The position numbers and the translations under genes are program-made. The notes beneath the pieces are model-generated. The model saw nothing but the letters and a program-made list of their open reading frames with translations. It was not told the origin of the DNA and did not search any database. Of a stretch of DNA of 64,000 nucleotides, positions 19,549 through 63,375 are shown piece by piece (within the stretch, counting starts at the first letter, position 1; every line of letters starts with the position of its first letter). Source of the stretch: Candidatus Thorarchaeota archaeon (GTDB lineage: Archaea > Asgardarchaeota > Thorarchaeia > Thorarchaeales > Thorarchaeaceae); assembly GCA_021498125.1 (NCBI GenBank), contig JAIZWL010000001.1, positions 197,434-261,433 on the forward strand, read 5' to 3'.

Positions 19549-20283
19549 ATGGCTTTCGTAGCAACTAAAGACTCAGGATTTGAGATTATTCTGAAAGACG
19601 GTTTTAAGATTCCTCCGGGTTCGACCTTTATCTGTGGTTTTCATGGACTTGGTGAGGTCGGGTTTCTGAGCACTGCACATCTCACACGTGCATTAGACGC
19701 CCGTAGAGTCGGTTTCATCAAGACAGATATGCTTCCTCTGTTTGTATCAATGGAGAATGAAAAACTGGTTCTCCCCTTTGAACTGTATTCATACGAGAAC
19801 TTCATCTTTCTCGTGCCACGGTTTCAACCACATCAGTCCGAACAGTGGCAATTTATTGATCGTATTGCCCGATGGATTGTTGAAAACAAGTTTGAAGAGA
19901 TTCTCCTGCTTGGTGGTCTGGATGCCAGCTTTAAGGAGGATGATGAGGACATGCGCTGTGTTCCGACAACAGCATACAAAGATCGTTTGGACAAGTGGTC
20001 TATCCCTCTTCTTGAGGAAGGTCTATTCGTTGCAGGGCCATTAGCTCTTCTGCTTGCAGAGCTGGAGATGCGTGATTATCCCGGTCTTGGACTTTTGACT
20101 TATGCCACACGCGGCCGTCCTGATCCACGTTCTGCTGCAACCATGTTGCAAAAGATAAACAGTGTATATGGTCTAGATGCCAGCGTTGATCAGTTGCTTG
20201 AAGAGAGCAAGGAGATTGAGCGTCTGGAGAAGATGCGCAAGTCAATTGAGTCTGATGATCGTTCAACAGATATGTTCGTCTAG
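19549..20283 (+). CDS. PAC2-family protein (archaeal proteasome assembly chaperone-like, PbaB/PAC2)
   Basis: ICGFHGLGEVGFLSTAHL N-terminal glycine-rich signature and ~240 aa length are typical of the archaeal PAC2 family. Confidence 0.65.
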   Translation: MAFVATKDSGFEIILKDGFKIPPGSTFICGFHGLGEVGFLSTAHLTRALDARRVGFIKTDMLPLFVSMENEKLVLPFELYSYENFIFLVPRFQPHQSEQWQFIDRIARWIVENKFEEILLLGGLDASFKEDDEDMRCVPTTAYKDRLDKWSIPLLEEGLFVAGPLALLLAELEMRDYPGLGLLTYATRGRPDPRSAATMLQKINSVYGLDASVDQLLEESKEIERLEKMRKSIESDDRSTDMFV

Positions 20284-24956: not shown

Positions 24957-27900
24957 ATGACAGCCGCCACAATAACTCCAAGGCGTAAGATGGGTTTGAC
25001 TACAATTCTTGGTACAGTTGCTGTTATTGCGATGCTTATGTGGGGTACGGTCGTCTTCTTTCAGATTCAGACGGGGAACGTTAGGACTGAGATCCCCCAT
25101 GAGCGGTACAGCGATGTAGTTCCATGGCCCTACAACATCAACTGGGGCGGTTCGTCTACTAATTGGTTTGATAACATGGACTATAATCAACTCCCTCTCA
25201 ATCAGACATTACCCGATGATCTTCTAGAGCATCTTAATGACGTTATGTTTATCGAGTCACCCACAGAGCCGGTTCAGTTGTGGCGTTATGATGCTTACGA
25301 CGAATATACAGGTTCATCTTGGCAGAAGACTGATGCGGCAATGAGTAATGTGACTCTAAACCTGATAACCCGCTCAGAGGCTGAGGCACTAGGCAATACG
25401 ATTTACACCGTCTACCTGAATGTTACAGCGGGCCCAAATGTTGGAGCGGTTCGACTGCCCACATTATTTCCAGATGCGCTCATTATCCAAGACTCTTTTG
25501 TGACTGGCCAGATCGAGGATGGCCATTTTCAAGTTGATACTCCCTCCCGTCTGTTGAATTACGATCTATCTCTTGACGCGCTTGGCGTTGTACAGTTCCG
25601 TCCACTTCTCTCAGCCCCCACTGGGGAGCATGTTTTAGTCGCATATGATCTCACGTTCAGAAGTCAGGATCTCTCGTCAATAGCAGATAACTCTCTACGT
25701 GGTGATAGCTCACCCCCAGACATCTGGGCCATGTATGGGCCCTCCACTCTGGATGGTATTGACTTTACACAGCGCGTAATCGATAACATCTCACAATTTG
25801 AAGACTCTTCAGCGACCGCATTTCAGACAGCAACAACAGTGGCAACCTATTTCCAGACCAAGTTCAAACTGATAATGAATGCCTCTGAATATAATATCCG
25901 CCCCGAGGAAGGTCGAGAAACGACCGATTGGTTCCTCGAACGTGGTGGTGGACTGCCGATGGATTTTGCCAGCTCGTATTGTGTGTTCATGAGACATCTT
26001 GGTATTCCTGCTAGGTATGTTGCAGGATTTGCAGTTGGTGATGATCTTGGTGGCTATAGGGCCCTAAAGGTCCTGCATATGACCTTCTGGGCGGAGGTCT
26101 ATATTCCAACATCCAGCACAACTGGTGAATGGGTACAGATATTGCCACTACCACTGCCCTCTGGCTCCGGGACCGAGATTCCCATGAACACGCCGGGTGA
26201 ACTCAAGCTATATACTTGGGCAAACACTCCTCAGGGCTGGGTGGTCACTGGTGATGATTTTGTGATCAGTGCCCTGTTATTATCTGGTGGTGTCCCAGTT
26301 TCAGGGCAGCAGATCACTTTCCGCGATAACACCGACAATCACTTGATGGGGACCGCCATCATTGAGCAGGGTACTTTCCTACCCTTGGCAAATCTGACAT
26401 ATGCCTATCCTGACGATGCGACACCTGGTCTCCATAATATCTCTGCTATCTTTCAGGGCCCCACAGAACAGGTTGAGAACTTTACATACGTGTACGTTGT
26501 GGCACAACCTAATCCTTATTCTCCGAATGGCCCCTCCTCCCCACAATTTACTCTCAGTGAAACATATGATGTGGATCTTAGCCTAGGTCTAGACGACTAT
26601 GTTGCCTATTGGGATGACATCTTGCACGTTCATGGGGTCATGACCGTGGGTGGTGATCCTGTAGATGGCACGACCCTAAATAATGACCAGATTCGTATCA
26701 TGTGGGACGACTACTTCATGGGTAATGCGACCATTCAATCGGATGGTTCGTATGAACTGGACATTCCTCTAGACCCCTCAGATCATGTTCGAATGACTGT
26801 TGGAACACATGAGGTATGGTCGGAATATCTTGGTGAGTACAATTCTCAGGGCATTCCTATCTTATTACCCGCCCGATCCGCTGATAATTCGACTGTCGAC
26901 TTACAAGGTAACATTGCGCTTACGCTCACAGCGACGCCTTCTCCAGTGGCTCGTGGGGGTACCCTGCATTATGACGGTATTTGCGAGCTACGAAATGGGA
27001 CCATTCTGGTAGGCGAGACCATTGGGATCTTCTTCGACAGTACATGGATAACAGATGTGACCACAAACAGCACTGGTGGCTTTAGCTATGATTATATCAT
27101 TCCTGTTGCACAGCCTCTGGGAACTTTTCCAGCTCAGGCAAACTGGACTTCCTCCTATACAGGTATTGCAGGAAACTGGAGCAATACGGTCGATGTGGAA
27201 GTCCAACTTAAGGCAGCTTCACTGACTATCGATTCTACTCCAAAAGATCCTGATGTAGTCCATCCTTATGAAAAGATTACAATATTCGGGTATCTCACTG
27301 ATCAGCTTAATGGGTCTGGTCTGGTTGGGCAGGATGTTGATATCTATTGGGACACCGGAAGTGGTGCTGTTAAAATCGGCACAGCGACTACTGATGCCAA
27401 CGGCTATTACGAGTTTAATTATACGGTCACAGATGCTTATTTTGGATCAGTTGATTATTGGTCAGAGTATGTATCCAGTTCTCCCTCCTATGAGGGTGCC
27501 ACCTCTCCCACTCTCTCAATCACCGTGGAGAAGTGGGCTACCGATGTGACGATTTCCGTTTCCCCGTCTCCCGCGCATCCTGCTGAATTAGTAACATTCT
27601 CGGGAACCGTGTCTGTGCCGGATCAAGGATCACTTCTCGGAAATGCTCCCGTCACTATTTGGTGGCAAAATAGTACAAGTACCTATAATCTATCAGTGGT
27701 CTTAACAAGTGCGGCCACTGGTATCTACACGTACTCATATACAATTCCTCTTAATCACGAGTTTGGAACCATCAGTTGCTGGGCCGAGTTTGTATCACCT
27801 TGGGCTGCCTTTGCGGATGATGTTTCCGATATTCGATTACTGACTATTACAAACTATACCACCCATCTGAATATCACCTCTAATTCTACCGTATACCACC

Positions 27901-30900
27901 TTAATGAGACCGCTCATATCTGGGGATCTCTTACTTTTGAGAATGGCAGTCCTATCGTCGGTCGGCAAGTGGTCTTATCATGGACAAATGCCACCGATAC
28001 GTATTATTACACACTACTGACAGATAGTCAAGGACGCTACGATTTCTATTACAACTTCTCTCCATCCAAAGATGATGTTGGTACTGTTGATGTGAGCGTA
28101 TCCTTCACATCATGGACTCGATTGCACTCTGATGCTTCAGCTACTCTTGGCACGCTTACTGTGCAATTGTTCCAAGTCGATTTGACTGCTACTCTTGATG
28201 CCGCGGAATATCATCAAGACGAATCCATTACTGTTTCGGGGACATTGACCTTTCAGCATAATGGCAATCCGCTTGGTGGGGCAATGGTCACGATATATTA
28301 TAGGAATGCAACCAAACTTATGAACTTCACAAAATACACCGATGCGACTGGCGCTTATTCATTCCAATATAATTTGACGCTTGATGATGCTCTTGGAGCG
28401 ATCTACATCTGGGCTCAGTATACCAGTACTGATCCATTATGGACTGATGCTATCTCTGCAAATAGGACTGCAACAATAATTCTGTATAGGCTCTCACTCA
28501 CAACCCAGACTAATTCAACATCATACCATCTCAATGAGACCATATGGGTCTCGGGTCGATTGACATTTCAGCACAATGGTACTGCAATAGTAGGTGAGTC
28601 AATTACGATACATATGCAATTGAGTAACGGAACTCTCCTGACATATTCTGGTTATGTGACAAACTCTACGGGTTATTATAATTTCTATTACAACTGTTCT
28701 CCAACTAAAGACAGTACGACCACAATCACGATCTGGGCAACGTATACAAGCACTCAACAGCTCTGGGATGATGCATCCTCTTCTCCTGGGGTTGATGTGG
28801 ATCTGATTCTCTATCCACTTCAACTATCACTTACTGGTCCTGCGGCAGTATATCTTGATAATTCGGTCGTGTTGACAGGGAATCTAGCGCATCAGGGCGG
28901 ATCGCCTGAGTTGACTGGGAAATGGGTGCGCATCTATCTTCTTGAAGGAAGTACTTGGACCTACTTGGGCCAGTCACAGACCGACTCTAATGGCGATTAT
29001 CAATATGTGTACACATTTACACTCAGTCAGGGCGCAGGTGATTACACTTTCAAGGCAAACTACTCTAGCACTGATCCACTGACTGCCGATGCAGAGAGTA
29101 GCCCATTCACTGTGACTGCAATGCGATATGATGTCAATATTGATTTCACTGCAAGTCCTACTACCGCAAAACTGAACGAATCAATCTTTTTCTCAGTCCA
29201 TCTCTACTTCGACAATGGTACTGATATACAAGGAGAAACAATCCTCATTCGATGGAACAATGGTTCTCTTTATACATTACATTCAGAGACCACAAACAGT
29301 ACTGGTTGGATGAATTTTGTTTTTACTGGTTTCCAGGAGCATACAGTATGGACTGGTATCACTAGTTATGGTGAATTTTCAGGTTCCCGTCTGTACAACG
29401 CCAATTCATCAGCTCACATTGCTATAACTTTGGAACAATGGGTCACAGCCATTATTGGATACAATACTACTGGTGGGAGAACAGATTACTATGTCACAGA
29501 CTGGGTAGATCTCAGTGGCGGGCTCTATTATACCGAGCCAGCACCAGATGTCCCCCTACCATCCGCCACTATCACCCTTCTCTTTGATGGAACTCCTGTT
29601 GATTCAACAGTCACACTTACTGATGGCTCTTTCTCGATCTCGTGGATGATTCCAGAAAGTACATCCCCCGGTCTACACACACTCTCGGTGGCGTTTTATT
29701 CTCCTGATAACTGGATCGCTGACTCAACAGACTCGATTACCCTTAATATTAGTGCAATCACACTCGTATGGACGTTGTTTGTGAATCCGAATAATCCCGC
29801 CTACCTGAGTGATCATCTCAATATCTCTGGAACGCTCTATCTGAGCAATGGTTCACCGTACAGTGGTGCAGCTGTGAGCCTCTATTGGGATCATCTGAGT
29901 GATGGCTTGAGTCCGCTCTTTATTAGTCAGGTCCTTACACAACCTGATGGGTCCTTCGAGTATATTTTCACTATTGATGCTTCAACAACTACTGGCTTTA
30001 CGACCGTTTGGGCATCTTGTACTCCCTCAAGCTCGTATATTGTCGGCAGTGATTCGGAAACAGTGACTATTGAGATTCTGCCAATCCCTGTTAATTTGAC
30101 TCTCACGTATTTTGATGACTCAGCGTATGTGGGTGACACAATCAATCTGGGTGGCTCGCTGCACTGGGGGAACGGTACTGGTTCGGCCATGGTGGGATAT
30201 ACAATAGCCCTCCTCTGGTCCGGGAGCCAAGTTGACTCTGTGGCCACAGATACCGATGGTGATTATGATTTCACATTTACAGTTCCTTGGGATAACTCAG
30301 TTGGGGTCATAACCTTTACAATTCAATTTGTGCGTCCTGATGCCTCTTTTGAGTCCGCAGAAGCCAGTGATTCTATCGAGATTTACAATCTTGTCACGAT
30401 CACGCTTAATCCGCAAAGAGTGACCGTCGTCTATCGTGGTGATCAACTAATTGTGAACGGGACTGTGACTAATACACATGGGCCAGTCCAAGATGTACCG
30501 CTTGTCCTATTAGTCGATGGTGCTCCCACTAGTGTGACTACAACTACACTTAGTCAAGGGGCCTTTGTACTCACCTATTCGGTTCCGAGTGATCTTCCTC
30601 TTGGCCCGCATACATTCAGCGTGAACGTGACCAATTTCTACTACGAGTTGAGTGGGGCTGTGGGCACATGGGATGTGACGGTGAAATTACAGAGTATATT
30701 GTCTGTCTACGTAGATCATACATATACGGTCACAACTGGTGAGAATTTCAGCGTCAGTATTCGGCTCACAGATTCCGATGGCAATTTAATTGCTGGGGTA
30801 GTGCGCGTCTATCTCAATAATTCCCTTCTCTCAACTGAGAATATTGATTCTGGCGCATGGGTGGTTATTGAGTTTCAAGTTCCGTCATCCATTTCAGCAA

Positions 30901-31742
30901 GTGGCTATTATGTTGTGAGTGCGGAATTCGATGGTATCGAGTCTTCATATATTGATGGCTCAACTGCTGAAGGGGAGGTACCTATTCATATCTTCACTCA
31001 AGTGGTCTTCACATCCTCTGTTGAAACAGTTCAGGTGGCGGGATCACAACTCGTCATTAGTGGACAACTCACTGACGACTCGCCAAATGCAATTCCTATT
31101 GTTGGACGTAGGCTCACGATAGCTGTAAATGGGACCACTTACACAGCAACAACAGGTGATGATGGTTCTTTCTCAGTAGTGATAGCTCCTCGAACGGTTG
31201 TGGGTATCTATGAGGTTTCTATTGAAGTTCCAACTGAAACGAATCCTATTTCAGTTTCAAGATTTACGATCCAAGTTCAAGCTAATACAGGTGGTAATAT
31301 GCAACTAGGTGATTTGTTAATTCCAATTACTGCTCTGGCAGGTGCAGTTATCGCGGTTCTGCTGTATCTTTACTTCGTCAGAGGTTTCTTCCATCCCTCT
31401 AAACGAGTGGGTGGTGTGGACATTCCAAGTAAGCTTCGCAACATCAAGAAGCTTGCAGATGCCGGAAAGTATGATGCTGCAGTGACTCTTGCATATCGTA
31501 CCTTTGAGCAGATGTGTGGATTGAAAACGGGCACAGAGCGTCTCAATTCTGAAACGGCTCGTGAATATCTTGACCGGGTACTCAAGTCATTGCCTCTTGA
31601 TGCTACTGCTATTGATCAGTTTGTGAATATCTATGAAGAGGCACGGTTCTCACAGCATGAGATCACACGAGGTCAGTATGAAGAAGCAGTCCGTATCTTT
31701 ACCGATCTCTATCCGCGTTTAGATGTTGGAACAACCGACTGA
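24957..31742 (+). CDS. Giant (2261 aa) TgpA-like surface protein. It has an N-terminal signal anchor, a transglutaminase-like cysteine-protease core, about 15 tandem ~100-aa Ig-like/carboxypeptidase-regulatory-like repeats rich in N-x-S/T sequons, a C-terminal TM helix and a cytoplasmic DUF4129-like tail.
   Basis: TGc core ASSYCVFMRHLGIPARYVAGFAVGDD. The repeat motif ...YHLNET...SG.LTFQHNG...G..V.I...N.T...Y.TDS.GxYxFxYN... recurs from ~aa 600 to 2050. C-terminal TM LIPITALAGAVIAVLLYLYFV is followed by a YRTFEQMCGL...AREYLDRV...ARFS tail. Confidence 0.8.
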   Translation: MTAATITPRRKMGLTTILGTVAVIAMLMWGTVVFFQIQTGNVRTEIPHERYSDVVPWPYNINWGGSSTNWFDNMDYNQLPLNQTLPDDLLEHLNDVMFIESPTEPVQLWRYDAYDEYTGSSWQKTDAAMSNVTLNLITRSEAEALGNTIYTVYLNVTAGPNVGAVRLPTLFPDALIIQDSFVTGQIEDGHFQVDTPSRLLNYDLSLDALGVVQFRPLLSAPTGEHVLVAYDLTFRSQDLSSIADNSLRGDSSPPDIWAMYGPSTLDGIDFTQRVIDNISQFEDSSATAFQTATTVATYFQTKFKLIMNASEYNIRPEEGRETTDWFLERGGGLPMDFASSYCVFMRHLGIPARYVAGFAVGDDLGGYRALKVLHMTFWAEVYIPTSSTTGEWVQILPLPLPSGSGTEIPMNTPGELKLYTWANTPQGWVVTGDDFVISALLLSGGVPVSGQQITFRDNTDNHLMGTAIIEQGTFLPLANLTYAYPDDATPGLHNISAIFQGPTEQVENFTYVYVVAQPNPYSPNGPSSPQFTLSETYDVDLSLGLDDYVAYWDDILHVHGVMTVGGDPVDGTTLNNDQIRIMWDDYFMGNATIQSDGSYELDIPLDPSDHVRMTVGTHEVWSEYLGEYNSQGIPILLPARSADNSTVDLQGNIALTLTATPSPVARGGTLHYDGICELRNGTILVGETIGIFFDSTWITDVTTNSTGGFSYDYIIPVAQPLGTFPAQANWTSSYTGIAGNWSNTVDVEVQLKAASLTIDSTPKDPDVVHPYEKITIFGYLTDQLNGSGLVGQDVDIYWDTGSGAVKIGTATTDANGYYEFNYTVTDAYFGSVDYWSEYVSSSPSYEGATSPTLSITVEKWATDVTISVSPSPAHPAELVTFSGTVSVPDQGSLLGNAPVTIWWQNSTSTYNLSVVLTSAATGIYTYSYTIPLNHEFGTISCWAEFVSPWAAFADDVSDIRLLTITNYTTHLNITSNSTVYHLNETAHIWGSLTFENGSPIVGRQVVLSWTNATDTYYYTLLTDSQGRYDFYYNFSPSKDDVGTVDVSVSFTSWTRLHSDASATLGTLTVQLFQVDLTATLDAAEYHQDESITVSGTLTFQHNGNPLGGAMVTIYYRNATKLMNFTKYTDATGAYSFQYNLTLDDALGAIYIWAQYTSTDPLWTDAISANRTATIILYRLSLTTQTNSTSYHLNETIWVSGRLTFQHNGTAIVGESITIHMQLSNGTLLTYSGYVTNSTGYYNFYYNCSPTKDSTTTITIWATYTSTQQLWDDASSSPGVDVDLILYPLQLSLTGPAAVYLDNSVVLTGNLAHQGGSPELTGKWVRIYLLEGSTWTYLGQSQTDSNGDYQYVYTFTLSQGAGDYTFKANYSSTDPLTADAESSPFTVTAMRYDVNIDFTASPTTAKLNESIFFSVHLYFDNGTDIQGETILIRWNNGSLYTLHSETTNSTGWMNFVFTGFQEHTVWTGITSYGEFSGSRLYNANSSAHIAITLEQWVTAIIGYNTTGGRTDYYVTDWVDLSGGLYYTEPAPDVPLPSATITLLFDGTPVDSTVTLTDGSFSISWMIPESTSPGLHTLSVAFYSPDNWIADSTDSITLNISAITLVWTLFVNPNNPAYLSDHLNISGTLYLSNGSPYSGAAVSLYWDHLSDGLSPLFISQVLTQPDGSFEYIFTIDASTTTGFTTVWASCTPSSSYIVGSDSETVTIEILPIPVNLTLTYFDDSAYVGDTINLGGSLHWGNGTGSAMVGYTIALLWSGSQVDSVATDTDGDYDFTFTVPWDNSVGVITFTIQFVRPDASFESAEASDSIEIYNLVTITLNPQRVTVVYRGDQLIVNGTVTNTHGPVQDVPLVLLVDGAPTSVTTTTLSQGAFVLTYSVPSDLPLGPHTFSVNVTNFYYELSGAVGTWDVTVKLQSILSVYVDHTYTVTTGENFSVSIRLTDSDGNLIAGVVRVYLNNSLLSTENIDSGAWVVIEFQVPSSISASGYYVVSAEFDGIESSYIDGSTAEGEVPIHIFTQVVFTSSVETVQVAGSQLVISGQLTDDSPNAIPIVGRRLTIAVNGTTYTATTGDDGSFSVVIAPRTVVGIYEVSIEVPTETNPISVSRFTIQVQANTGGNMQLGDLLIPITALAGAVIAVLLYLYFVRGFFHPSKRVGGVDIPSKLRNIKKLADAGKYDAAVTLAYRTFEQMCGLKTGTERLNSETAREYLDRVLKSLPLDATAIDQFVNIYEEARFSQHEITRGQYEEAVRIFTDLYPRLDVGTTD

Positions 31743-31764
31743 TCCGATTGGAGTGTAAGGAACT

Positions 31765-33168
31765 ATGATGAATCCGAAGAAGGCTCTCTGGATTGTTTTA
31801 TTCGCCCTTTCTTGGATTCCAGTCGGGATGCTGTTCGTTTCAAATGTGTCGAATGTTCCCGATGTCTATCCTCAGGACTTCAGCATCTATAATCAGGGCT
31901 GGAATGGATTGAGTACGTTCAGAGAAGACATAGAATCTATGGGCTATACACCTGTTGCCATTCAATCGTCGATGAGTGTTGTCACACGATATGAGGGCAA
32001 TGCTGTTCTTGTCATCACGGGTCCCGTTCGTGACTTCTCTATTGATGCAATATTTGTCATCTTTGATCATTTAATGAATGGCGGCAGCGTTGTGATAGCC
32101 GATGATTTTGGGACTGCGAATGCCTCCTTTGCATTGCTTAATACTTTGATTTCCGGTCAGGTCACCGAGCATGCTCCCGTTCCAGTTCATGGTATTCTCT
32201 CTTATACCGGTGGTGTTCTTCTCGATCTGAACTCGTACGACAAGAGCCCGAAGCTTCCTATCATCACCGATTTTCGTCCCGGACTTGATGGTGGTGCCTT
32301 GACCGTTGGTGTTTCCAGTCTGCATCTAAATTGGGCCACTGCAATCAATCCGCGTTCGGCATTGGGTCTGGCAGGTATAGCATGGACCTCCGAACGATCA
32401 TGGTGCGATCGAAATATTACCGACCCCAATCCGTATCCTGATGATGGTGAATGGAATGGTTCCCTGCCAGTGGTTGGGGCTCTAGATCTTGGAGGGCTGG
32501 TTGGTGATGGTTCGCGTGGGGGTCGCATTGTTGCGATAAGTGACCCAAGTATCTTTACAAATGATATGATTAATCGTGGTGATAATCGTCAATTTGCTCA
32601 TAATGTGATTAATTGGGCTACTCATGGAGAGCAGAATCAGACAATTGTTTTCTGCGAAAATCTACTTGCAGTGCCATGGTACGCACCCGAATTCTTCTTT
32701 GGATTATATCTTAGTCGAGTTATCTGGCTGTCGACGCTCCCATTTGTATCATTCCTTTATCCTTTTGTTACGGTTGTGGGAATAAAGAAATACCTGCCAG
32801 ATATGAAGAAACCCGAGGTAAAAGCGGTTTCAGAGGTGTTCTTGCGTCGGGGGCAGACATATTTCAGTGAGCGTATGGCCTATTACAGGACTGAGGGCAA
32901 TTATGCCCGTGTAATTAAGATGTTATATCGTAAATTGCGGCGCGATATGAAACGAAAGTATCTATGGGCCGAGTATGATTCACAAAAAGTATGGGATCTT
33001 CTCAAAGCAAAAGATCCGAAATTGAAACGAAATGATTTCTTTAAGACGATAACGCGTATCGAGAAGATAGCAGCAAATCCCGCCATGAAAATTCATGAGA
33101 ATGAGATGATGGATTTGTTCTTCTTCATGCGCAATATACAGAACAAACTTATCGCTACAAAAAAGTGA
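31765..33168 (+). CDS. DUF4350-like membrane-anchored protein (N-terminal and C-terminal TM helices), an accessory subunit of MoxR/DUF58 systems
   Basis: Topology (N-terminal TM, large extracytoplasmic domain, C-terminal TM LSTLPFVSFLYPFVTVVGI, basic tail) and a position immediately upstream of MoxR-DUF58. Confidence 0.45.
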   Translation: MMNPKKALWIVLFALSWIPVGMLFVSNVSNVPDVYPQDFSIYNQGWNGLSTFREDIESMGYTPVAIQSSMSVVTRYEGNAVLVITGPVRDFSIDAIFVIFDHLMNGGSVVIADDFGTANASFALLNTLISGQVTEHAPVPVHGILSYTGGVLLDLNSYDKSPKLPIITDFRPGLDGGALTVGVSSLHLNWATAINPRSALGLAGIAWTSERSWCDRNITDPNPYPDDGEWNGSLPVVGALDLGGLVGDGSRGGRIVAISDPSIFTNDMINRGDNRQFAHNVINWATHGEQNQTIVFCENLLAVPWYAPEFFFGLYLSRVIWLSTLPFVSFLYPFVTVVGIKKYLPDMKKPEVKAVSEVFLRRGQTYFSERMAYYRTEGNYARVIKMLYRKLRRDMKRKYLWAEYDSQKVWDLLKAKDPKLKRNDFFKTITRIEKIAANPAMKIHENEMMDLFFFMRNIQNKLIATKK

Positions 33169-33178
33169 GGTAATAGAT

Positions 33179-34165
33179 ATGACTTTAGACGAGACTGACA
33201 CAATGGGCGGTGGTTCTGTCGATGCATTAAGCATTGATGAGGTCCACAGTTTGACAACCGAGATCATCCGTGAGGTCCAACGAGTGATCGTTGGCAAGAC
33301 GGACATCCTACGGGACTGTCTGATTGCAATGTTGTCCAATGGTCATGTTGTGCTTGAAGGTGTTCCGGGTCTTGCAAAGACGTACATGGCTCGGACTTTT
33401 GCGTCCATTTTGGGATGCCAGTTCAAACGTATACAACTCACCGTGGACACACTCCCTGCGGACATTCTTGGTAGTAATGTTTTCAATCAGCGCAGTGGCG
33501 AATTCTGGTTCAGGAAAGGTCCAGTATTTGCCAATCTGGTGCTTGCAGATGAGATCAACAGATGTCCCCCTAAATCTCAGAGTGCACTGCTCGAGGTGAT
33601 GGAAGAACGTCAGGTCTCAATTGAGGGTGTGACACGAAAGTTACCTGAACCGTTTCTGATCATTGCCACTCAAAACCCTGTGGAGCAAGAAGGCACCTAC
33701 CCCCTGCCTGAGGCACAGCTTGATCGGTTCATGTTCCGTCTGATTCTTGATTATCCTACTAAGAGTGAGGAGGCAGAAGTCATCAGACGTAAACATATTG
33801 GTGAGGCAACTGACCTGCGGGTTCTAGCGGATCCGGAAACCATTGTTCGGATGCAAAACACCTGTAAAAAGGTATACATCGATGATGACATCATCACTTA
33901 CATTCGAGACCTCATTGTTCGCACCCGAAATGACCCTCAAATTCTTCTTGGTGGTTCCCCTCGGGCCTCCCTCGTACTTATGAGTGCATCAAAGGCACGT
34001 GCAGCCATGCAAGGGCGTGATTACGTCATTCCCGAGGATGTACGAAAGCTCGCAATTCAGACTCTCAACCATCGGTTATTACTTAAACCCGAGGCTGAGC
34101 TCGAGGGAATGACTGTAGAACGTGTCGTGTCCAAGATACTAGGTGAAATCGACTGTCCCCGATAG
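33179..34165 (+). CDS. MoxR-family AAA+ ATPase
   Basis: VVLEGVPGLAKTYMARTFASILG Walker A, hhhhDE Walker B (LVLADEINR), sensor regions; 328 aa. Confidence 0.9.
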   Translation: MTLDETDTMGGGSVDALSIDEVHSLTTEIIREVQRVIVGKTDILRDCLIAMLSNGHVVLEGVPGLAKTYMARTFASILGCQFKRIQLTVDTLPADILGSNVFNQRSGEFWFRKGPVFANLVLADEINRCPPKSQSALLEVMEERQVSIEGVTRKLPEPFLIIATQNPVEQEGTYPLPEAQLDRFMFRLILDYPTKSEEAEVIRRKHIGEATDLRVLADPETIVRMQNTCKKVYIDDDIITYIRDLIVRTRNDPQILLGGSPRASLVLMSASKARAAMQGRDYVIPEDVRKLAIQTLNHRLLLKPEAELEGMTVERVVSKILGEIDCPR

Positions 34166-35528
34166 ACTCTATCGGTCACATACTGTTCACTGGAGACGAT
34201 ATGCTGTGATTACTAAGAGAGGCTTTGTGGTTCTGTTCGGTGGCGTTCTTTTACTGACAAGTGGATTCGCCTACATGAACTTCTATCTCACTATGATAGG
34301 GGTATATCTATTGGTCGGTCTCGTTGTTACATTACCTCTTTTTGCACTTACTGCAAACCTCTCGGGGATTGAAGTGGAGCGCCAGATAGACAAGGGAAAG
34401 GTCTTTTCTGGTGATTTTCTACGGGTCCGTGTCACAATCAAGAATGTATCTCACAGGCATTTCGACTTCATTGAAATCTGGGATCAATATCCCGAGACTT
34501 GGATATTGGCCATTGGTGAGAACTTTATAGCATCGCGAATCGAACCTGGAAGTAGTATTACCTTCTCCTATATCTTGCAAGCGCGAATGCGTGGTCGATA
34601 CTATATTGGCCCTACAGAGGTCATTATGCGCGATCGTCTGGGTCTACACTACTACAAACGAACTCTAAAGGCACGTACTGAGATTCTCGTATATCCTACT
34701 TGGAAAGATGTACGCAGAATGGAGTCACTTGGCAAGCAGAGGCAGCTTGGTCTCATGTTTGGAGCTCACAGAACAAAGACAGTTGGTATGGGCACGGACT
34801 TTGCAGGGTTCCGTGATTATGTTCCTGGAGATGCTTTTCGGCTCATTGATTGGAAGGCAAGTGCTCGTCGTGGTAAGATGATTGTTAAACAGTTCGAGAT
34901 GGAGAAGAATATTCAGATCGTGTGTATGATTGATACGTCAGGTAGTATGGGTAATGGCTATCCTGAAAACACCAAATTAGAATATGCAATTCGTGCTGCT
35001 GTTCTTCTCTCCTATATGGGAATTGAACGAAAAGATCTTGTTGGAACCTGTGTATTCTCCGATAAAGTGCATACATTTGTCCCGCCAAGTCTAAAGCCTA
35101 ACCATATGTTTGAAGTATTGGAATCATTGGCCCTTGCTGAACCAATAGGCTGGAGTAATTTTCCAGAGGCAGTGGAGTATGTCACCCGACAGCTCACAAA
35201 GCGTACTCTATTCATTTTTCTCACCGATTTGGAGGAGAGCCCGGGGCCACTGCTGACTGCAATGAAACGGGTTATTGCAAACGGGCATAAGGCCCAAATT
35301 ATCAGCCCGTTTGGTCCTTGGTTCGAGGCGCCTGTAGGGCAGTTTGGTCCAGTAGAACGTGTTCTTGCTGAGGCTGTTCAGGAGGAGCTCTGGGAGCGTC
35401 GTAGTAAGATCGCACGAGCCCTATCACGTTTTGGTATTGATGTTGTAAATGTCGGCCCAGAAGACTTCCTGCCTGTGATCATTAAGCAGTACAATTTGGC
35501 AAAGCAAAGGGGGGTTGCACTACATTGA
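34143..35528 (+). CDS. DUF58-family protein with a von Willebrand factor A-like domain (MoxR partner)
   Basis: N-terminal TM pair, DUF58 core, MIDTSGSMG MIDAS-like motif; overlaps the moxR stop. Confidence 0.8.
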   Translation: MKSTVPDRLYRSHTVHWRRYAVITKRGFVVLFGGVLLLTSGFAYMNFYLTMIGVYLLVGLVVTLPLFALTANLSGIEVERQIDKGKVFSGDFLRVRVTIKNVSHRHFDFIEIWDQYPETWILAIGENFIASRIEPGSSITFSYILQARMRGRYYIGPTEVIMRDRLGLHYYKRTLKARTEILVYPTWKDVRRMESLGKQRQLGLMFGAHRTKTVGMGTDFAGFRDYVPGDAFRLIDWKASARRGKMIVKQFEMEKNIQIVCMIDTSGSMGNGYPENTKLEYAIRAAVLLSYMGIERKDLVGTCVFSDKVHTFVPPSLKPNHMFEVLESLALAEPIGWSNFPEAVEYVTRQLTKRTLFIFLTDLEESPGPLLTAMKRVIANGHKAQIISPFGPWFEAPVGQFGPVERVLAEAVQEELWERRSKIARALSRFGIDVVNVGPEDFLPVIIKQYNLAKQRGVALH

Positions 35529-36910
35529 AGATAGTCACATGGATTCTGCGTATTCTATCCACCACAACTTTTGTCTATATGTGCTGGATTGTCTATAACC
35601 AGTTATCGGGTTATTGGGACTGGGCCTCTCCCTACACTTTCATTGTGACCGTCTTTCGTGTTCTCTCCCTCATATTGTTCTTTGTGACCATTATCGTGGT
35701 GAATGGTATAGCCAGTATAGTACTGGGAGGGCATATGGCCAATAGCTTGGTTGTAGGTCTCTATAACTCAATGGCACTCCACTTCTGGTATCTCCAACCA
35801 TACGGTTCCCATGGTCCTCTTACTGATGTCTATCAAGTATTTCAAGTGTTTTCGACACAGATCTTTGATTTAGCTTTTCAGTTATGGGATGACACCTTTA
35901 CATTTCTGTATTTTCTCTTTGCAGGAATTGGTATTGCGATGTTTTTGCAATCTCTATTTCGAATGGAACACAAGTTCGTTGGAGGTGCCTTTCTCTCCAT
36001 TCAAGCAATTCTTATTGTGGCCGCCTTTCGAGATTTGCCCATTTATGGTGGCTCCCCTCCCTCTGGTGATTTTCTCACCTTTCTCGCGTCCGGTATGCAG
36101 ATCTTGGCAATCGTGTCATTTGCATATCTCGAATTCAGTTACCAAATGATTTACAGCTACTCCGTAGGGAAACCCGTTGAAGACCGGGAAGAAACATTGA
36201 AGAAGCAACTGTTAGCTTTGCGGTCAGCCACCCGCCGCCAAGACGCTATAGAGCGTGGGGAGCGAACGTCCTCTTCAACAATGAGTCGAACAACTGGCGC
36301 AACTGCATTTTCATTCTTACGTGAGGTCATCGAACGAAAAATCATCGGTAGTCACAAGGCGCTTGAAAATCTAGATGCGATTAGTGATGTACGGCGTCTG
36401 AATATCTATGTAGATGAATTACTTGCAACAGATTCCTCTGCTCGTGACGAGCTCACCGCCAAAGCTGCTACTCCCTCTTCAGCTTATGTGATCAGTTCTA
36501 CAATCATTGGGTCTGTCATCCGGTTTCTCAGTGTGGTGGCAGTGTCCTTTTTCCTTCTAAATCCTGCATTTCTCATGAATCTCCTTAATCTCCCTCCCGG
36601 AATTCGTAACAGTGTAGAGCTACAGCAACCTGAGATTGTTGTGCTCTTTCTAGTGCCAGTATTGCTCACCTTTGCCTTTGCAGCGGCCATGATAACTTGG
36701 TTGTCACAAGAAAGGTTGGAAGACGAGCCCAAATTGAGCCGTGAGGAAAAACGAAGTCTCCGGAAACGCAGAAAGGAATTGGAGCGTAAGATGCGAGAAC
36801 TTGAACGTGCTCGACGCGAGCGATTCAAACGTTGGAGAAAACGCAAACGAAAGCCGGATGCCGAAGAAGATGAATGGGATCGCGCATTAGATGAAATCTA
36901 CAAGTCATGA
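35525..36910 (+). CDS. Polytopic membrane protein with a C-terminal highly basic coiled-coil tail (possible membrane partner of the TGase/MoxR system)
   Basis: Multiple TM helices in both halves; C-terminus KRSLRKRRKELERKMRELERARRERFKRWRKRKRK; translationally coupled to the DUF58 gene (overlapping stop/start). Confidence 0.55.
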   Translation: MKIVTWILRILSTTTFVYMCWIVYNQLSGYWDWASPYTFIVTVFRVLSLILFFVTIIVVNGIASIVLGGHMANSLVVGLYNSMALHFWYLQPYGSHGPLTDVYQVFQVFSTQIFDLAFQLWDDTFTFLYFLFAGIGIAMFLQSLFRMEHKFVGGAFLSIQAILIVAAFRDLPIYGGSPPSGDFLTFLASGMQILAIVSFAYLEFSYQMIYSYSVGKPVEDREETLKKQLLALRSATRRQDAIERGERTSSSTMSRTTGATAFSFLREVIERKIIGSHKALENLDAISDVRRLNIYVDELLATDSSARDELTAKAATPSSAYVISSTIIGSVIRFLSVVAVSFFLLNPAFLMNLLNLPPGIRNSVELQQPEIVVLFLVPVLLTFAFAAAMITWLSQERLEDEPKLSREEKRSLRKRRKELERKMRELERARRERFKRWRKRKRKPDAEEDEWDRALDEIYKS

Positions 36911-40246: not shown

Positions 40247-40543
40247 TTACAATCTCAACGTTTCAATGATCTCTTGGACTGATGGTCCCTCGATCGCAAG
40301 TATCTTTTCTCTTGACTTGTGTCCCGTGACAATCATGATGTGCGACGTTGATATTCCTATGATCTTTGCAAGTCTTTTCACGAGTTCCGTATTGGCCTTC
40401 CCTTCTCTGGCAGGCCCTCGAAGATTGATACTGATGTGAGTATCTGTGATCTCTTCAATAAATCGTTTTGACCTGGAGTTGGGTCTCACAAGAACACGTA
40501 TGAATATGCGGGACTGTTTTTCCCAGATGGCGGTTTTTTCCAT
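40247..40543 (-). CDS. DUF167/YggU (UPF0235) family small protein
   Basis: IRVLVRPNSRSKRF...INLRGPAREGKANTELVKRLAKIIGIS...IVTGHKSREKIL matches the YggU pattern. Confidence 0.7.
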   Translation of the reverse strand: MEKTAIWEKQSRIFIRVLVRPNSRSKRFIEEITDTHISINLRGPAREGKANTELVKRLAKIIGISTSHIMIVTGHKSREKILAIEGPSVQEIIETLRL

Positions 40544-40690
40544 GCCTTTTTCATGTGACCCTACCCATTTTAGTGTGCCTTAATCTGTAAATTCAGATTG
40601 GCGAGAGGCCCACTGAGATTTACTTAAATCGGGTAACGTTCTGAATACATAGTAAGGATTTAACGAGTAATTCCAACGGGGTGAATTTCA

Positions 40691-41071
40691 ATGTCTGATC
40701 CAGTAATGGACGCATATACACAAGCATATAATGACTCTGGACAACTGATCCAGGCCTTTGGCGTTATTACCACGTCAGGTCAGGTTCTCTGGCAAAGTAG
40801 TAACTGGGATCTAACTGCTGATGCACCAGGACTTGGTTCTGCAGTCGTGAAGGGCGCCACATCTGTGGTACAGAATCAAGTGAAGTACAGCACAATTCGA
40901 GTGACACCTGAAAGTCTTGTGGCTCGCAGTGTGGCTGGAAACGGTACACTTGTTCTGGCTAAGATTGAGGGTGACAAGTTCGTTGTTGCATGGGCGGACC
41001 CAAGTGCGCGTCCTGATCAAATCTATGTGGACGTTGACCGCGCGGCAAAGAAGCTCAAGGGCAAAATCTAA
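40691..41071 (+). CDS. Profilin-like protein, paralog 1 (eukaryotic signature protein)
   Basis: 126 aa. AFGVITTSGQVLWQSS corresponds to the profilin AAIVGYKDSPSVWAAV block, KYSTIRVTPESL to QKCSVIRDSL, and TLVLAKIEGDKF to TLVLLMGKEGVH, with a C-terminal helix. The Roadblock/LC7 alternative does not fit. Confidence 0.7.
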   Translation: MSDPVMDAYTQAYNDSGQLIQAFGVITTSGQVLWQSSNWDLTADAPGLGSAVVKGATSVVQNQVKYSTIRVTPESLVARSVAGNGTLVLAKIEGDKFVVAWADPSARPDQIYVDVDRAAKKLKGKI

Positions 41072-41093
41072 ACACATCTATACATATGGGGCA

Positions 41094-41148
41094 GGATGAG
41101 GGGCCATATGATTTTCTACCCCTATCCGGCCTCGATATTTTATTTTTG
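41094..41148 (+). terminator. Hairpin (GGAUGAGGGG...CCCCUAUCC) followed by a U-rich tract between the two profilin paralogs; a putative terminator or attenuator
   Basis: Near-perfect 9-10 bp stem at 41094..41127, then TATTTTATTTTTG. Confidence 0.4.
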
Positions 41149-41158
41149 AGGGATGCTA

Positions 41159-41533
41159 ATGGAAGATCCAATCGGTCAAGCCTGGAACGCCTTGTATACT
41201 GCTAATCCGAAGATTCAGGCATTTGCTGTTATCAAAGGATCCACAGTTGCATGGCAGACCTCGAACTGGGATCTTGTAGATGAAGCAGAATCTCTCTCAT
41301 CTGTTCTGAAGACCGCACCCGAAAAAATCAGAGTGAATAAGGTCGAGTATCATCGTGTATACTTGGATGAGACCTCCTTTGTAGCCACAGCCGACAAGAA
41401 AAAAGGCCATCTCCTCATGAGCCTTGTAACAGCCGGGACTTGGCTAGTGGCATGGGCAACTCCCGATGCGGATCCAGAACTTGCGCAGATTGATCTTGCT
41501 AAGACCGCTTTTGACCTTCGTGATAGTGTATAG
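41159..41533 (+). CDS. Profilin-like protein, paralog 2 (eukaryotic signature protein)
   Basis: IGQAWNALY matches the profilin N-terminal AGWNAYI helix; AFAVIKGSTVAWQTSNWDL; LVAWATPDADPELAQIDLAKTAF C-terminal helix. Followed by CTGCCTTTTTTT (T-tract at 41539..41547). Confidence 0.7.
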   Translation: MEDPIGQAWNALYTANPKIQAFAVIKGSTVAWQTSNWDLVDEAESLSSVLKTAPEKIRVNKVEYHRVYLDETSFVATADKKKGHLLMSLVTAGTWLVAWATPDADPELAQIDLAKTAFDLRDSV

Positions 41534-41680
41534 ACTGCCTTTTTTTCATATGTGATGATTCAATGTTGGCCGTCTGTAGGTCAACATGATTCTCTGTAAC
41601 TTATCAATGATTCTCAATAAATCAAAATGGCAGTAGATTTAGATAGTCGGAGAGCCCAATTATATTATGAGGGATCTACT

Positions 41681-41914
41681 ATGGCCGTTGTTGCTTTTAT
41701 CATGCTCAAGGTTCGCACGGACTCTACAAGGGGTGTTCTTGAAAAGGTCAAGTCTTTTGCAGAGACAAAACAAGTTCATATCATCTTTGGGGCGTATGAT
41801 ATGATCGTAAAGGCCGAGTTCAAGGATAACGATGAGATGAGTCGTTTCGTTGTGGATAAATTGAAATCGCTTGATGGCGTTATAGAGACCGCCACAAATG
41901 TCTGCGCCATATAA
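41681..41914 (+). CDS. Stand-alone RAM (Lrp/AsnC C-terminal ligand-binding) domain protein
   Basis: MAVVAFIMLKVRTDSTRGVLEKVKSFAETKQVHIIFGAYDMIVKAEF... is an AsnC_trans_reg domain without an HTH. Start placed at the internal Met (41681). Confidence 0.65.
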   Translation: MAVVAFIMLKVRTDSTRGVLEKVKSFAETKQVHIIFGAYDMIVKAEFKDNDEMSRFVVDKLKSLDGVIETATNVCAI

Positions 41915-41982: not shown

Positions 41983-42756
41983 CTATTTCTCAGGAAACAA
42001 AATGGCCCGAATCTGTTTTTGGGTTTCAATCCATTTGTCTATGCCTGTTGCGTGGACATTGAGCAAGAATTCGTAGAGGTCAAGGACATCACTATCTACA
42101 ACATCTCCCTTGATCATTTTGGCAATTGTTTCCCTGCCCGCTGATTCAATTGTCCATGCTTTGACTACAAGCTCGGATAATCTCTTTTTTTCATCCTCTG
42201 AAAAATTATATCCGAAGACATCGTTCAACCGGTCTATTGCTTGCTTGACTCGCCCCTTTAAGAGACGTGCACCTGTGAGTCTTGGTGTTGTTGCTATGAC
42301 GAATCCCTTTGCAGTTCTTCGATAATAGTCCGTCGTTCGTTTTCCCGTTGTCACCGTTCCATATTTGATGATCAGTCCTGCCTCAATCAATCTCGGTAGA
42401 TGATGATATACCTGATTCTTTGTGACGGCCTCAAGTTCATCATCCATTGCAGATAATTTCACGATTTCTATTACTGAGAGCGCATGCCGTTTGACCTCAC
42501 GTTGCCGTATAATGAGATCACCAGTTTCATCATCTCTCATACGAGTGGTGATGATGTCCTGTACGCCTTTTTTCATGGTCTTGAGGATTGCAAGACGTAC
42601 TGGGTCTTCCAAGGTCTGAATTATCTCTTCATTGGTCACAAAGACCAATTCCTTCTGGGGCGTGCGTCCCTCAGCAGTCAGTTCTATCTCTCTTAATGTG
42701 TCTGTCAACCTGTCAATATCTTCAGGTTGGTTCGTTATTGAGGCGGTCATAGTCAC
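41983..42756 (-). CDS. Winged-helix (ArsR/MarR-like) transcriptional regulator
   Basis: LEDPVRLAILKTMKK...HALSVIEIVKLSAMDDELEAV...VYHHLPRLIEAGLI HTH/wing pattern. Confidence 0.55.
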   Translation of the reverse strand: MTMTASITNQPEDIDRLTDTLREIELTAEGRTPQKELVFVTNEEIIQTLEDPVRLAILKTMKKGVQDIITTRMRDDETGDLIIRQREVKRHALSVIEIVKLSAMDDELEAVTKNQVYHHLPRLIEAGLIIKYGTVTTGKRTTDYYRRTAKGFVIATTPRLTGARLLKGRVKQAIDRLNDVFGYNFSEDEKKRLSELVVKAWTIESAGRETIAKMIKGDVVDSDVLDLYEFLLNVHATGIDKWIETQKQIRAILFPEK

Positions 42757-52573: not shown

Positions 52574-53410
52574 ATGAAACGGACAATATCGGCCGTAATC
52601 TTGTTGGGCATCACCTTTGCTCTCCTAATGCCATCGCTTGCAACAGCAGTTGACAATCGGATAATCATGAGGGGAGGTTATGGTGGTGGCGGTGGTGGTC
52701 CTCCGACAACCACCCCCACCGAGATTGTATATCACACAGGCACTGCCAACAGATGGGCGGTTATCATTGGAATCTCTGATTATGAAGGATCAACGAACGA
52801 CCTTTGGGATCCTGATAAAGATGCATTAGAGATGGCCCAGATTCTTGAAGGCTACGGTTACAATTATGCCATTGCTCTCAATGATGCTGGAACCGCAGAT
52901 AATATTGTATTATTGCTCGATTGGCTCATCACCAATGAGGATGCGAACTCTGATGTGGTATTCTTCTTCTCAGGACATGGCTCCCGTGTTGAAGATGGGA
53001 CTTGGGACACTGACATCGAATCGGATGGTTATGATGAATGTATAGTGTCCTATGATCTCGTTGCAGTGACAGACTCGTACATGGCCAGTAGGTTTTCAGA
53101 GCTTGAGTCCACACACTTTGCAGCTGTCTATTGTAGTTGTCACAGTGGAGGTATGTTTGATCAGTCATATGAGACCCAGAGTGGATCTCTCTATATCGCA
53201 GCTGCAGAAGCCGATCAGTATGGTTGGGACTACAGCACTCTAGAGAATACACTGTTCTTCTACTACTTTGGTGATCAAGGACTTTTGAATGGCCCATACG
53301 ACAATCTGCAAGATGCCTTCTGGTATGCAAGACCATTTGTCATAGCTGAACAGCCGGACAGCTGTCCAATAATGCTGGACAATCTGGGTACACCATTTTA
53401 TGTCAAATGA
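52574..53410 (+). CDS. Secreted caspase-family (C14, metacaspase/orthocaspase-like) cysteine peptidase
   Basis: Signal peptide, Gly-rich linker, RWAVIIGISDY block, catalytic His in FFFSGHG and Cys in the AVYCSCHSGG (DxCHSG-like) motif. Confidence 0.65.
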   Translation: MKRTISAVILLGITFALLMPSLATAVDNRIIMRGGYGGGGGGPPTTTPTEIVYHTGTANRWAVIIGISDYEGSTNDLWDPDKDALEMAQILEGYGYNYAIALNDAGTADNIVLLLDWLITNEDANSDVVFFFSGHGSRVEDGTWDTDIESDGYDECIVSYDLVAVTDSYMASRFSELESTHFAAVYCSCHSGGMFDQSYETQSGSLYIAAAEADQYGWDYSTLENTLFFYYFGDQGLLNGPYDNLQDAFWYARPFVIAEQPDSCPIMLDNLGTPFYVK

Positions 53411-62619: not shown

Positions 62620-63375
62620 ATGAATCTCCAAATTGACAAGTCCATTATGGTGACCACTCGCTCATGTCAACCAATATCAACGGAGAAGGCAGTTGTGGAG
62701 TTACAACCCGGCTCTCTCTGGACACGAGTTCTCAGGGCCGATGAGGTCGTCGGAATTATCTTTGCTGGGGCTGCTCATTTTGCAGTTGATGCCATTGCTG
62801 AGACCGCCGCTGGAGCTGTAGGTGAATCTGTCACTGATGATCTTGAAGGCTGTCAGCTTCTTCTCGGAGACCTTGACATTGAGGAGGCATCTCGTGAGGC
62901 GAGTGACGATGATCTCCGCACAAATGGATTTGAGAGTGCAGCGAACTTTCTTGAAAAAGCAGGAGATATTCTGAAAGATGCAAAGCTCAAGAAGGCAGGG
63001 ATTCCCTCAGGCCATGGTAGAGTCCTCATTGGCCATACTCTGACCAATTCGAGTCTGGTTCTTGTTGTGAGCAATGACAAACTTGTTCTTGTCTATCGTG
63101 ATCGCACCTATGTTGTCAGTGATGACACACTCATTGAAGTGCGAAAGAATCGGCTCCGCGTGTATGGGAAACGTGGGCGCGTCTTTGGTCTCTTACGATC
63201 TCGGCATGACCACCCGCATCATGAGCACATCATCGATGTTGGTGTTCCTGAGCCCTGGGACGATTGGGACGACTCTGTTTCGGACTGTTGTCCTCCACAT
63301 ATGCCTCCAAGGTATACTCCCCGATTCGACTGGCATCGTGCAACTCATGACTGGGATCCAGACTGGGTTGTCTGA
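62620..63375 (+). CDS. Hypothetical protein translationally coupled to the preceding regulator; C-terminus rich in His/Trp/Asp (PEPWDDWDD, DWDPDW)
   Basis: Start overlaps the stop of the 61732 gene (TAAATG); no family motif recognised. Confidence 0.45.
   Translation: MNLQIDKSIMVTTRSCQPISTEKAVVELQPGSLWTRVLRADEVVGIIFAGAAHFAVDAIAETAAGAVGESVTDDLEGCQLLLGDLDIEEASREASDDDLRTNGFESAANFLEKAGDILKDAKLKKAGIPSGHGRVLIGHTLTNSSLVLVVSNDKLVLVYRDRTYVVSDDTLIEVRKNRLRVYGKRGRVFGLLRSRHDHPHHEHIIDVGVPEPWDDWDDSVSDCCPPHMPPRYTPRFDWHRATHDWDPDWVV

Follow-up and report, generated by a model that had tools for sequence, protein, structure and literature searches.

A conserved tandem of two profilin-fold genes in Thorarchaeota

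Profilins are well known in Asgard archaea, Thorarchaeota included, and they are one of the principal arguments that actin dynamics were already regulated before eukaryotes arose. Studies of Thorarchaeota have so far dealt with a single profilin, which is weakly active on rabbit actin and whose published N-terminal extension is probably an annotation artefact. A 64,000-nucleotide stretch from a Candidatus Thorarchaeota archaeon (contig JAIZWL010000001.1, positions 197,434 to 261,433; hereafter ‘the window’) carries two adjacent open reading frames (ORFs), here called profilin A and profilin B, which an earlier note had described from the letters of the stretch as tandem, divergent profilin-like genes. 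The locus raises the question of whether both ORFs are indeed profilins and, if so, how the second copy arose and whether it still plays the part proposed for the first. The results described below make it very probable that the two are profilin-fold genes derived from an old tandem duplication and that both are functional.

Two adjacent genes for profilin-fold proteins

The two tandem ORFs, each encoding 126 amino acids on the forward strand as listed (Table 1), were recovered where the earlier note had placed them. Every motif quoted there is found in the A or B translation (AFGVITTSGQVLWQSS, AFAVIKGSTVAWQTS, KYSTIRV, QAWNALY, TLVLAKIEG and SNWDL), and the identity between the two proteins, estimated in the note at about 35%, is 33% over their full length (41/126 residues; BLASTP E-value 2e-21). 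The ‘W..SNWDL’ motif that had been noticed in both copies belongs to an xQ[ST]xNW[DN] block that is a general Asgard-profilin signature.

Both A and B are profilin-fold proteins. In phmmer searches against Protein Data Bank (PDB) chains, each has significant similarity to experimentally established profilins: A matches 7PBH (E-value 2.1e-52; ~70% identity across all 126 residues), Odin 5ZZA (4e-10), Loki 5ZZB (1e-6) and Loki 5YED (2e-6), and B matches 7PBH (7e-19; ~32% identity), Odin 5ZZA (4e-6) and no other chains. AlphaFold models built on family alignments have predicted local distance difference test (pLDDT) scores of 91.2 for A and 92.5 for B. The two models share one topology, in which an N-terminal helix is followed by two strands, a short helix, three strands at residues 58-80 (58-61, 64-72 and 75-80), two further strands and a C-terminal helix. 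This is the profilin fold, complete with its three-strand insertion.

Foldseek places both models closest to profilins. They superpose on Asgard profilins with template modelling (TM) scores of 0.80-0.91 and root-mean-square deviations (rmsd) of 1.7-3.1 Å, and on eukaryotic profilins (PF00235; for example PFN1/PFN2), which have the same fold, with TM scores of 0.72-0.78 (Acanthamoeba, yeast and S. pombe) at 12-20% identity. Among PDB structures, the A model matches 7PBH first (70% identity), Odin and Loki profilins next (TM 0.80-0.88) and then eukaryotic profilins. For the B model, the Odin, Loki-2 and Loki-1 profilins stand at the top (TM 0.85-0.91, rmsd 1.7-2.4 Å), followed by 7PBH and then by the Acanthamoeba, yeast and S. 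pombe proteins (TM 0.75-0.78). The Odin and Loki profilins (5ZZA, 5ZZB and 5YED/5YEE) are thus the best structural matches of B and the second-best of A; they share a QTxNW signature with both proteins, and GxGH and a Thr at A-position 79 with B. However, they are only 19-26% identical in sequence to A or B, and the Loki profilins possess a long ‘Loki loop’ (bioRxiv 10.1101/2021.08.06.455371) that A and B lack.

A competing assignment is that one or both ORFs encode Roadblock/LC7/MglB-type GTPase regulators. Several A orthologs are named by the Joint Genome Institute (JGI) as ‘predicted regulator of Ras-like GTPase activity (Roadblock/LC7/MglB family)’, Foldseek reports matches to Roadblock and MglB chains at a probability of 1.00, and the profilin and Roadblock folds have a common core (PMC10933270). 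Members of that family, such as Thor Roadblock 7F8M, have a five-stranded sheet and flanking helices, as profilins do. However, they lack the three-strand insertion and dimerise via their central helix (PMC10933270), and the three-strand motif, which contacts actin, is what sets profilin apart from the Roadblock and longin folds (PMC10933270). In the models of A and B, these three strands replace the second half of the central helix that is continuous in Roadblock proteins. Furthermore, Roadblock and MglB chains rank lower in the Foldseek lists and superpose poorly (TM 0.54-0.72, rmsd mostly 4-8 Å; for B, Roadblock gives about 0.6 and about 7 Å), significant E-values in the PDB sequence searches come from profilins only, and neither the PDB search nor Pfam yielded a Roadblock sequence match for A or B. 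Both the sequence matches and the ranking of structures therefore favour profilin for A and for B, and the Roadblock reading, already largely refuted, is extremely improbable. The earlier note had also named what would overturn its proposal, namely that the ORFs would be assigned to Roadblock/LC7 or to some other fold and would match no profilin; this does not apply to either gene, since both match profilins and Roadblock ranks lower.

Judged by its sequence, profilin A is an already known Thorarchaeota profilin type with a solved ortholog. This ortholog is thorProfilin (TFG12995.1; PDB 7PBH, solved by nuclear magnetic resonance; Survery et al. 2021; Inturi et al. 2021/2022), with which A shares its genomic position, fold and neighbours, including a downstream B-type gene. 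Homologs of A form 133 clusters, and the 120 listed are 67-99% identical to it and mostly 126 amino acids long. Among those listed, named sources are almost all labelled Thorarchaeota, and the protein names are mostly lacking or ‘hypothetical’, with a few Roadblock-family names from JGI and one ‘profilin family protein’.

The published thorProfilin differs from A in having 18-19 additional N-terminal residues, which window A cannot have because its ATG is preceded, at a distance of two codons, by an in-frame stop. The extension itself most likely reflects a mis-called start codon, a possibility raised by the thorProfilin authors themselves (PMC8410842). At the locus from the TEKIR_14 genome (L065), which is the source of TFG12995.1 and 7PBH, the annotated extension of 18 residues, MCGYNLGTEWISLRSKLE (L065:3947-4000), begins at an ATG directly 3ʹ of the TATA-like TTTTTTATACAAT, and the conserved MSDPVM ATG lies 54 nucleotides (nt) downstream with a GGAG of its own. 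The sister genome L066 (3900-4030), compared along with window positions 40571-40690, has ATACC where L065 has the upstream ATG, and only nine open codons. A few other database entries are also longer, and their extensions show no relation to one another. The mis-called start is suggested by the lack of conservation of the extension ATG, by stops no more than two codons upstream of MSDPVM in 37/72 loci and by GGGTG within 16 nt 5ʹ of the conserved A start in 54/65.

Profilin B adds a new and as yet uncharacterised protein to the known profilin family. No second, syntenic Thorarchaeota profilin is named or characterised in the literature searched, where B-type sequences could sit unnamed in published profilin trees. 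The B clade, as defined here, comprises proteins of ~120-126 amino acids that are encoded 30-190 nt downstream of profilin A and carry the signature W-x2-L-[YF]-x2-N-[PS]-K-[IF]-Q-A-F ... W-Q-T-x-N-W ... G-H-[LI]-L ... P-[ED]-L-x2-I-D-L. Window B has every one of these features and groups with the clade in a neighbour-joining (NJ) tree. A word-indexed search returned 19 clusters of B homologs, all without Pfam domains and, apart from one evident JGI misannotation, unnamed or ‘hypothetical’. When a B-family profile was searched against 1.84 billion representatives, 73 proteins were retrieved at E ≤ 1e-3, beginning with about 11 B-type clusters; next came P0148, a protein of intermediate type, and after it members of the A family and further Asgard profilins.

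Translation of B most likely begins at the second ATG of the listed ORF (41159), which yields 124 amino acids. Translation starts exactly eight codons ahead of an invariant Trp at 65 related B loci, and the equivalent position in the window is this ATG, 6 nt past a GAGGG; in most of the upstream sequences listed for related loci, GGTGG, GGAGG or GGTGA stands ~5-8 nt 5ʹ of the start (judged by eye, untallied). The codon used at this strictly conserved position is ATG in 33 loci, TTG in 26 and GTG in six. The non-ATG starts have led some gene callers to over-long or shifted models, such as P0004 at 184 amino acids.

Conservation of the tandem and its origin

We scanned one genome per species and obtained 73 related loci, most of them titled Thorarchaeota and the rest bearing other Asgard or generic archaeal metagenome-assembled genome (MAG) labels. 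The Asgard placement suggested in the earlier note is borne out, as all 73 loci carry either Asgard MAG labels or generic ‘uncultured archaeon’ titles. A B-type gene was found by tblastn directly 3ʹ of A in 70/73 loci. At one further locus (L037), a run of N covers the junction, yet the C-terminus of B can be seen, and another (L023) ends 7 nt past A and is not assessable. B is thus present in 71/72 assessable Thorarchaeota genomes. The spacer between the genes measures 81-87 nt in the window and has a median of 87 nt across loci. Because order and spacing are kept in 71 of the 72 genomes, the tandem is more than a chance arrangement. In L055, the sole genome without B, unrelated DNA starts right past the A stop (L055:4382-5300), which suggests an insertion, a rearrangement or a mis-assembly.

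Estimates of substitution rates indicate strong purifying selection on both genes. In the 82 genome pairs whose dS is below 1.5, the median ratio of nonsynonymous to synonymous substitution rates (dN/dS) is 0.044 in A and 0.098 in B. Among 64 genomes, mean identity is 76% for A-A comparisons (minimum 60%) and 48% for B-B comparisons (minimum 32%), and A and B of the same genome are 23-38% identical. Distances between B proteins are 2.7 times those between A proteins and correlate with them (r 0.81), as is expected under vertical co-inheritance.

The faster evolution of B might indicate a decaying or functionless duplicate, such that only A matters. Such a view could also draw on the use of TTG or GTG as the B start in 32/65 genomes, on the loss from B of the [IV]KYST motif, which is retained in other Asgard profilins, and on the one genome without B. 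However, the B frame is intact in all but one of the assessable genomes, which span A-A identities down to 60%, its start position and Shine-Dalgarno sequence are conserved, 28 positions are invariant among 20 members of its family, and its structural model is confident and compact. Together with these features, the strong constraint seen in the dN/dS values of both genes argues that B is not a decaying copy, an explanation that we consider very improbable.

The pair of functional genes would have arisen by an ancient tandem duplication of a profilin gene in the Thorarchaeota (Asgard) lineage. In a relative, a single profilin, P0148 (L074:3001-3378, L075:611-988), adjoins the same divergently transcribed DUF167 gene that lies upstream of A, and no second profilin copy occurs within 3 kb of it. 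P0148 is 37% identical to A and 33% identical to B and has mixed signatures, with MSDP and KYST as in A and NNP, WQT and GQGH as in B, and it is a candidate for the pre-duplication state. An old tandem duplication fits the existence of this single syntenic profilin equidistant from A and B, and the data fit a duplication in the Thorarchaeota stem after the P0148 lineage had split off; loss of a copy in that lineage is the alternative. In an NJ tree with 18 other Asgard profilins (200 replicates, capped distances), A is monophyletic at 98% and B at 84%. ‘Multiple duplications’ were previously noted in the Asgard profilin tree (PMC8410842). The general picture is unchanged by the present locus, in that Asgard profilins and duplications among them are already documented.

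The residues that each family retains differ. Positions conserved in both are A22-F23, W34-Q35, N38-W39, Y66, G85, P108, D114 and L122. When states are polarised with outgroups, those preserved from the ancestor are [IV]KYST in strand β4 and Leu76 in the case of A, and Leu12, Asn16 (NNP), Ala23, Thr34 (WQT), the GxGH motif and Thr79 in the case of B. In place of the β4 KYST, B has x-Y-[KH]-R.

The idea that B has lost actin-binding arginines (R70 and R79 of A) was considered and rejected. At the positions equivalent to A 70 and 79, the Odin profilin, which binds actin, carries Asp and Thr, and both P0148 and P0150 carry Ser and Thr. R70 and R79 are therefore gains specific to A.

Possible roles of the two profilins

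For A, a function is suggested by the TEKIR_14 ortholog, which slowed elongation of rabbit actin at 100 µM and bound a proline-rich VASP peptide with a Kd of 250-500 µM (PMC8410842), and which co-localised with actin in HeLa cells (bioRxiv 10.1101/2021.08.06.455371). A, the slowly evolving ortholog of thorProfilin, would be the conserved G-actin-binding profilin of the lineage. By analogy with the 7PBH ortholog, A would bind actin in the window organism, contacting the monomer via its three-strand/C-helix face, and would bind proline-rich peptides weakly.

B is a second, co-located profilin-fold protein with its own ribosome-binding site, set ~87 nt 3ʹ of A and kept by purifying selection in essentially all Thorarchaeota. 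Most likely, it remains a profilin isoform that binds a ligand and whose actin-contact strand has changed, and its affinity or specificity may consequently differ, for example in favour of another actin-family protein. Because each paralogue keeps a different subset of the ancestral signature residues, we infer sub- or neo-functionalisation and a division of labour between A and B. The balance of evidence leans slightly towards B still binding an actin-family protein. Co-crystals obtained by Akil and Robinson in 2018 reportedly establish actin binding by the Odin and Loki profilins. A stronger proposal is that B is a functionally distinct second isoform, universal to Thorarchaeota, that works with an actin-family partner of its own or affects actin in a markedly different way, and that a stem-loop in the spacer may tune the A:B ratio; we offer this tentatively and regard it as rather doubtful.

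Alternatively, B could have left actin regulation. It would then bind another ligand, or it would form a heterodimer with A as its partner or regulator, and the hairpin between the genes would control the A:B expression ratio. The exchange of the β4 [IV]KYST for x-Y-[KH]-R falls in the actin-contacting segment, the tight adjacency of A and B is conserved, a stem-loop recurs between them, and the fold is reused in other Asgard proteins, where profilin-like domains are fused to GTPase, MIT and winged helix-turn-helix (wHTH) domains. However, B retains GxGH, Thr79 and WQT in common with the actin-binding Odin profilin, and no region of B is selectively relaxed. Profilins are normally monomers, which does not favour a heterodimer. 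On this evidence a departure of B from actin regulation is unlikely, and we lean slightly towards B as an actin-family-binding isoform.

Positions equated by Inturi et al. with human W3, Y6 and W31 are V5, Y9 and W34 in A and I, W and W in B. Hidden Markov models (HMMs) of A and B gave no significant alignment to human PFN1 or yeast PFY1, so residues can be mapped to eukaryotic actin contacts only by inference.

Several results weigh against the reading of A and B as duplicated profilins that both serve actin regulation. The Pfam check proposed in the earlier note gave a sub-threshold PF00235 match for A (18.9 bits against a cut-off of 25; E-value 0.0017), Pfam is silent on B, PF00235 included, and NCBIfam matches neither protein; the superposition on Asgard profilins proposed alongside it succeeded, as described above. 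The A match is collinear (residues 20-124 on profile positions 17-124), and a precomputed PF00235 match is present on some A orthologs. Since the PF00235 model is built mainly on eukaryotic sequences, the missed gathering score weakens the database annotation rather than the homology, and neither Pfam nor NCBIfam can serve to decide membership of the family. In addition, the sister relationship of A and B is the NJ point estimate of a crude tree, with only 43% bootstrap support, so the timing of the duplication rests mainly on synteny. The entropy of B exceeds that of A by 0.5-1.1 bits in every structural region, and this spread of variability over the whole protein means that sequence alone signals no changed ligand. 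Finally, Pfam scans of 57 ORFs of at least 120 amino acids that resemble real genes (13 others of this size were excluded, most of them overlapping scanned genes in a different frame or on the other strand) detected no domain of actin, gelsolin, ARP or any further cytoskeletal protein in the 64-kb window. The earlier note’s suggestion that the pair points to an actin cytoskeleton draws on the literature on the phylum, and the window itself provides no actin or gelsolin gene to go with it.

A selective conservation of the N-terminal helix face of B was also considered and was rejected, as B exceeds A in entropy to a similar degree throughout the protein.

A second profilin that is under selection and unannotated in nearly every Thorarchaeota genome implies that the actin-regulator inventory of this lineage has been under-counted. 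Eukaryotic profilin paralogues are isoforms with different ligand preferences, and the Thorarchaeota duplication is independent of theirs and specific to Thorarchaeota. If B does differ from A, profilin isoform specialisation would have arisen in Asgard archaea independently of eukaryotes. A and B provide a concrete protein pair for biochemical comparison.

The B-family profile also retrieved multidomain proteins encoded outside the window. Five of these (P0202, P0166, P0184, P0200 and P0182), presumably from Asgard archaea, have profilin-like domains fused to Ras-family GTPase, MIT or TrmB-type winged-helix domains or to a long coiled coil. Another candidate, P0159 (2081 amino acids with 7-9 ‘profilin-like’ stretches), proved spurious and is a SpaA-repeat, LPXTG-anchored surface protein.

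The spacer, neighbouring genes and the wider window

The earlier note had proposed that a hairpin and T-tract between the genes might allow them to be transcribed separately. Both elements are present in the window (Table 1), but of the two only the hairpin recurs in many relatives. In 44/65 spacers, a GGG(G)...CCC(C) stem-loop begins 4-27 nt (mostly 11-27 nt) past the A stop, with sequences that differ by clade. Folding of the window spacer is not significantly better than that of shuffled sequences (z -1.05 and -1.45 in two runs), and a terminator scan did not call its stem-loop. Over the 65 spacers, which are not independent loci, comparison with dinucleotide shuffles gave a mean z of -1.08, with 40/65 below -1. 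RNAalifold predicted no consensus pairs on a MAFFT alignment of 38 spacers, in which the 3ʹ arms are out of register, and covariation of the stem-loop is for that reason not demonstrated.

T runs of at least 5 nt occur in 7/65 related spacers. Within 60 nt of the spacer start they are found in 4/65 loci and in the 60 nt past B likewise in 4/65, against a background of 4.7% per 60-nt window. The T-tract is thus not a conserved signal, and its candidacy as a conserved terminator was rejected for the spacer and for the region after B alike. The T7 run after B is a possible archaeal termination signal in the window genome only. Because the T-tract is not conserved in relatives, separate transcription of A and B is not supported; the two genes may plausibly be co-transcribed, with the stem-loop acting at a 3ʹ end or between cistrons. 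A scan for TATA boxes (TTTAWATA) gave a match 5ʹ of A in 14/64 loci and 5ʹ of B in 2/64, and is uninformative on transcription units.

Table 1. Features of the profilin locus, in window coordinates.
Feature	Position	Strand	Remarks
DUF167/YggU-family gene	40247..40543	-	PF02594, E-value 2.8e-19; divergently transcribed neighbour of profilin A
Shine-Dalgarno-like GGGGTGA of profilin A	40678..40684	+	6 nt 5ʹ of the ATG; read from sequence
Profilin A, 126 amino acids	40691..41071	+	Ortholog of 7PBH/TFG12995.1
G/C-rich stem-loop in the A-B spacer	~41084..41138	+	RNAfold minimum free energy -25 kcal/mol
TTTTATTTTT tract 3ʹ of the stem-loop	41138..41147	+	Read from sequence
Shine-Dalgarno-like GAGGG for profilin B	41148..41152	+	Read from sequence
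Profilin B, 124 amino acids	41159..41533	+	Start most likely at this ATG; listed ORF 41153-41533 encodes 126 amino acids; divergent Thorarchaeota-wide paralogue
T7 run	41540..41546	+	6 nt past the B stop codon; read from sequence
Stand-alone RAM (Lrp/AsnC ligand-binding) gene	41627..41914	+	PF01037, E-value 5.4e-13, residues 25-93
257-amino-acid winged-helix (HTH_20/PadR-like) protein	41983..42756	-	Weak Pfam HTH matches; convergent

The genes that flank the tandem are conserved to different degrees. The DUF167 gene is found upstream of A, on the opposite strand, in 66/69 assessable loci, and it is a conserved synteny partner rather than a working part of the profilin pair. An OPT transporter gene (-) is present in 57/61 assessable loci and the 257-amino-acid wHTH protein (-) in 54/61. 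The stand-alone RAM-domain gene, whose presence after the pair the earlier note had correctly reported (PF01037, E-value 5e-13), lies on the same strand downstream of B in 35/66 assessable loci and is therefore a frequent but not a constant neighbour. Its translation probably starts at an internal ATG (41681), giving 77 amino acids, as suggested by a GAGGG ahead of that ATG and by homologs that begin there; the RAM homolog at locus L037, for instance, has 78 amino acids and starts at the equivalent of Met19 of the window ORF.

The surroundings of the locus consist of ordinary archaeal housekeeping and transport genes. Four further ORFs have no Pfam match: two on the reverse strand at a threshold of E ≤ 1e-4 (17129-19564, 810 amino acids; 13783-14424, 212 amino acids) and two on the forward strand at E ≤ 1e-3 (35525-36910, 461 amino acids; 62620-63375, 251 amino acids). 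The third of these ends a gene series (24957-36910) that has the domain content of a MoxR-VWA-transglutaminase style operon. It opens with a 2261-amino-acid protein with transglutaminase-core, macroglobulin, carboxypeptidase-regulatory and DUF4129 domains, after which come DUF4350, a MoxR-type AAA_3 ATPase, a DUF58/VWA protein and the 461-amino-acid protein. Elsewhere in the window (52574-53410), a gene for a caspase-domain (Peptidase_C14) protein adjoins that for an endonuclease related to Holliday-junction resolvases.

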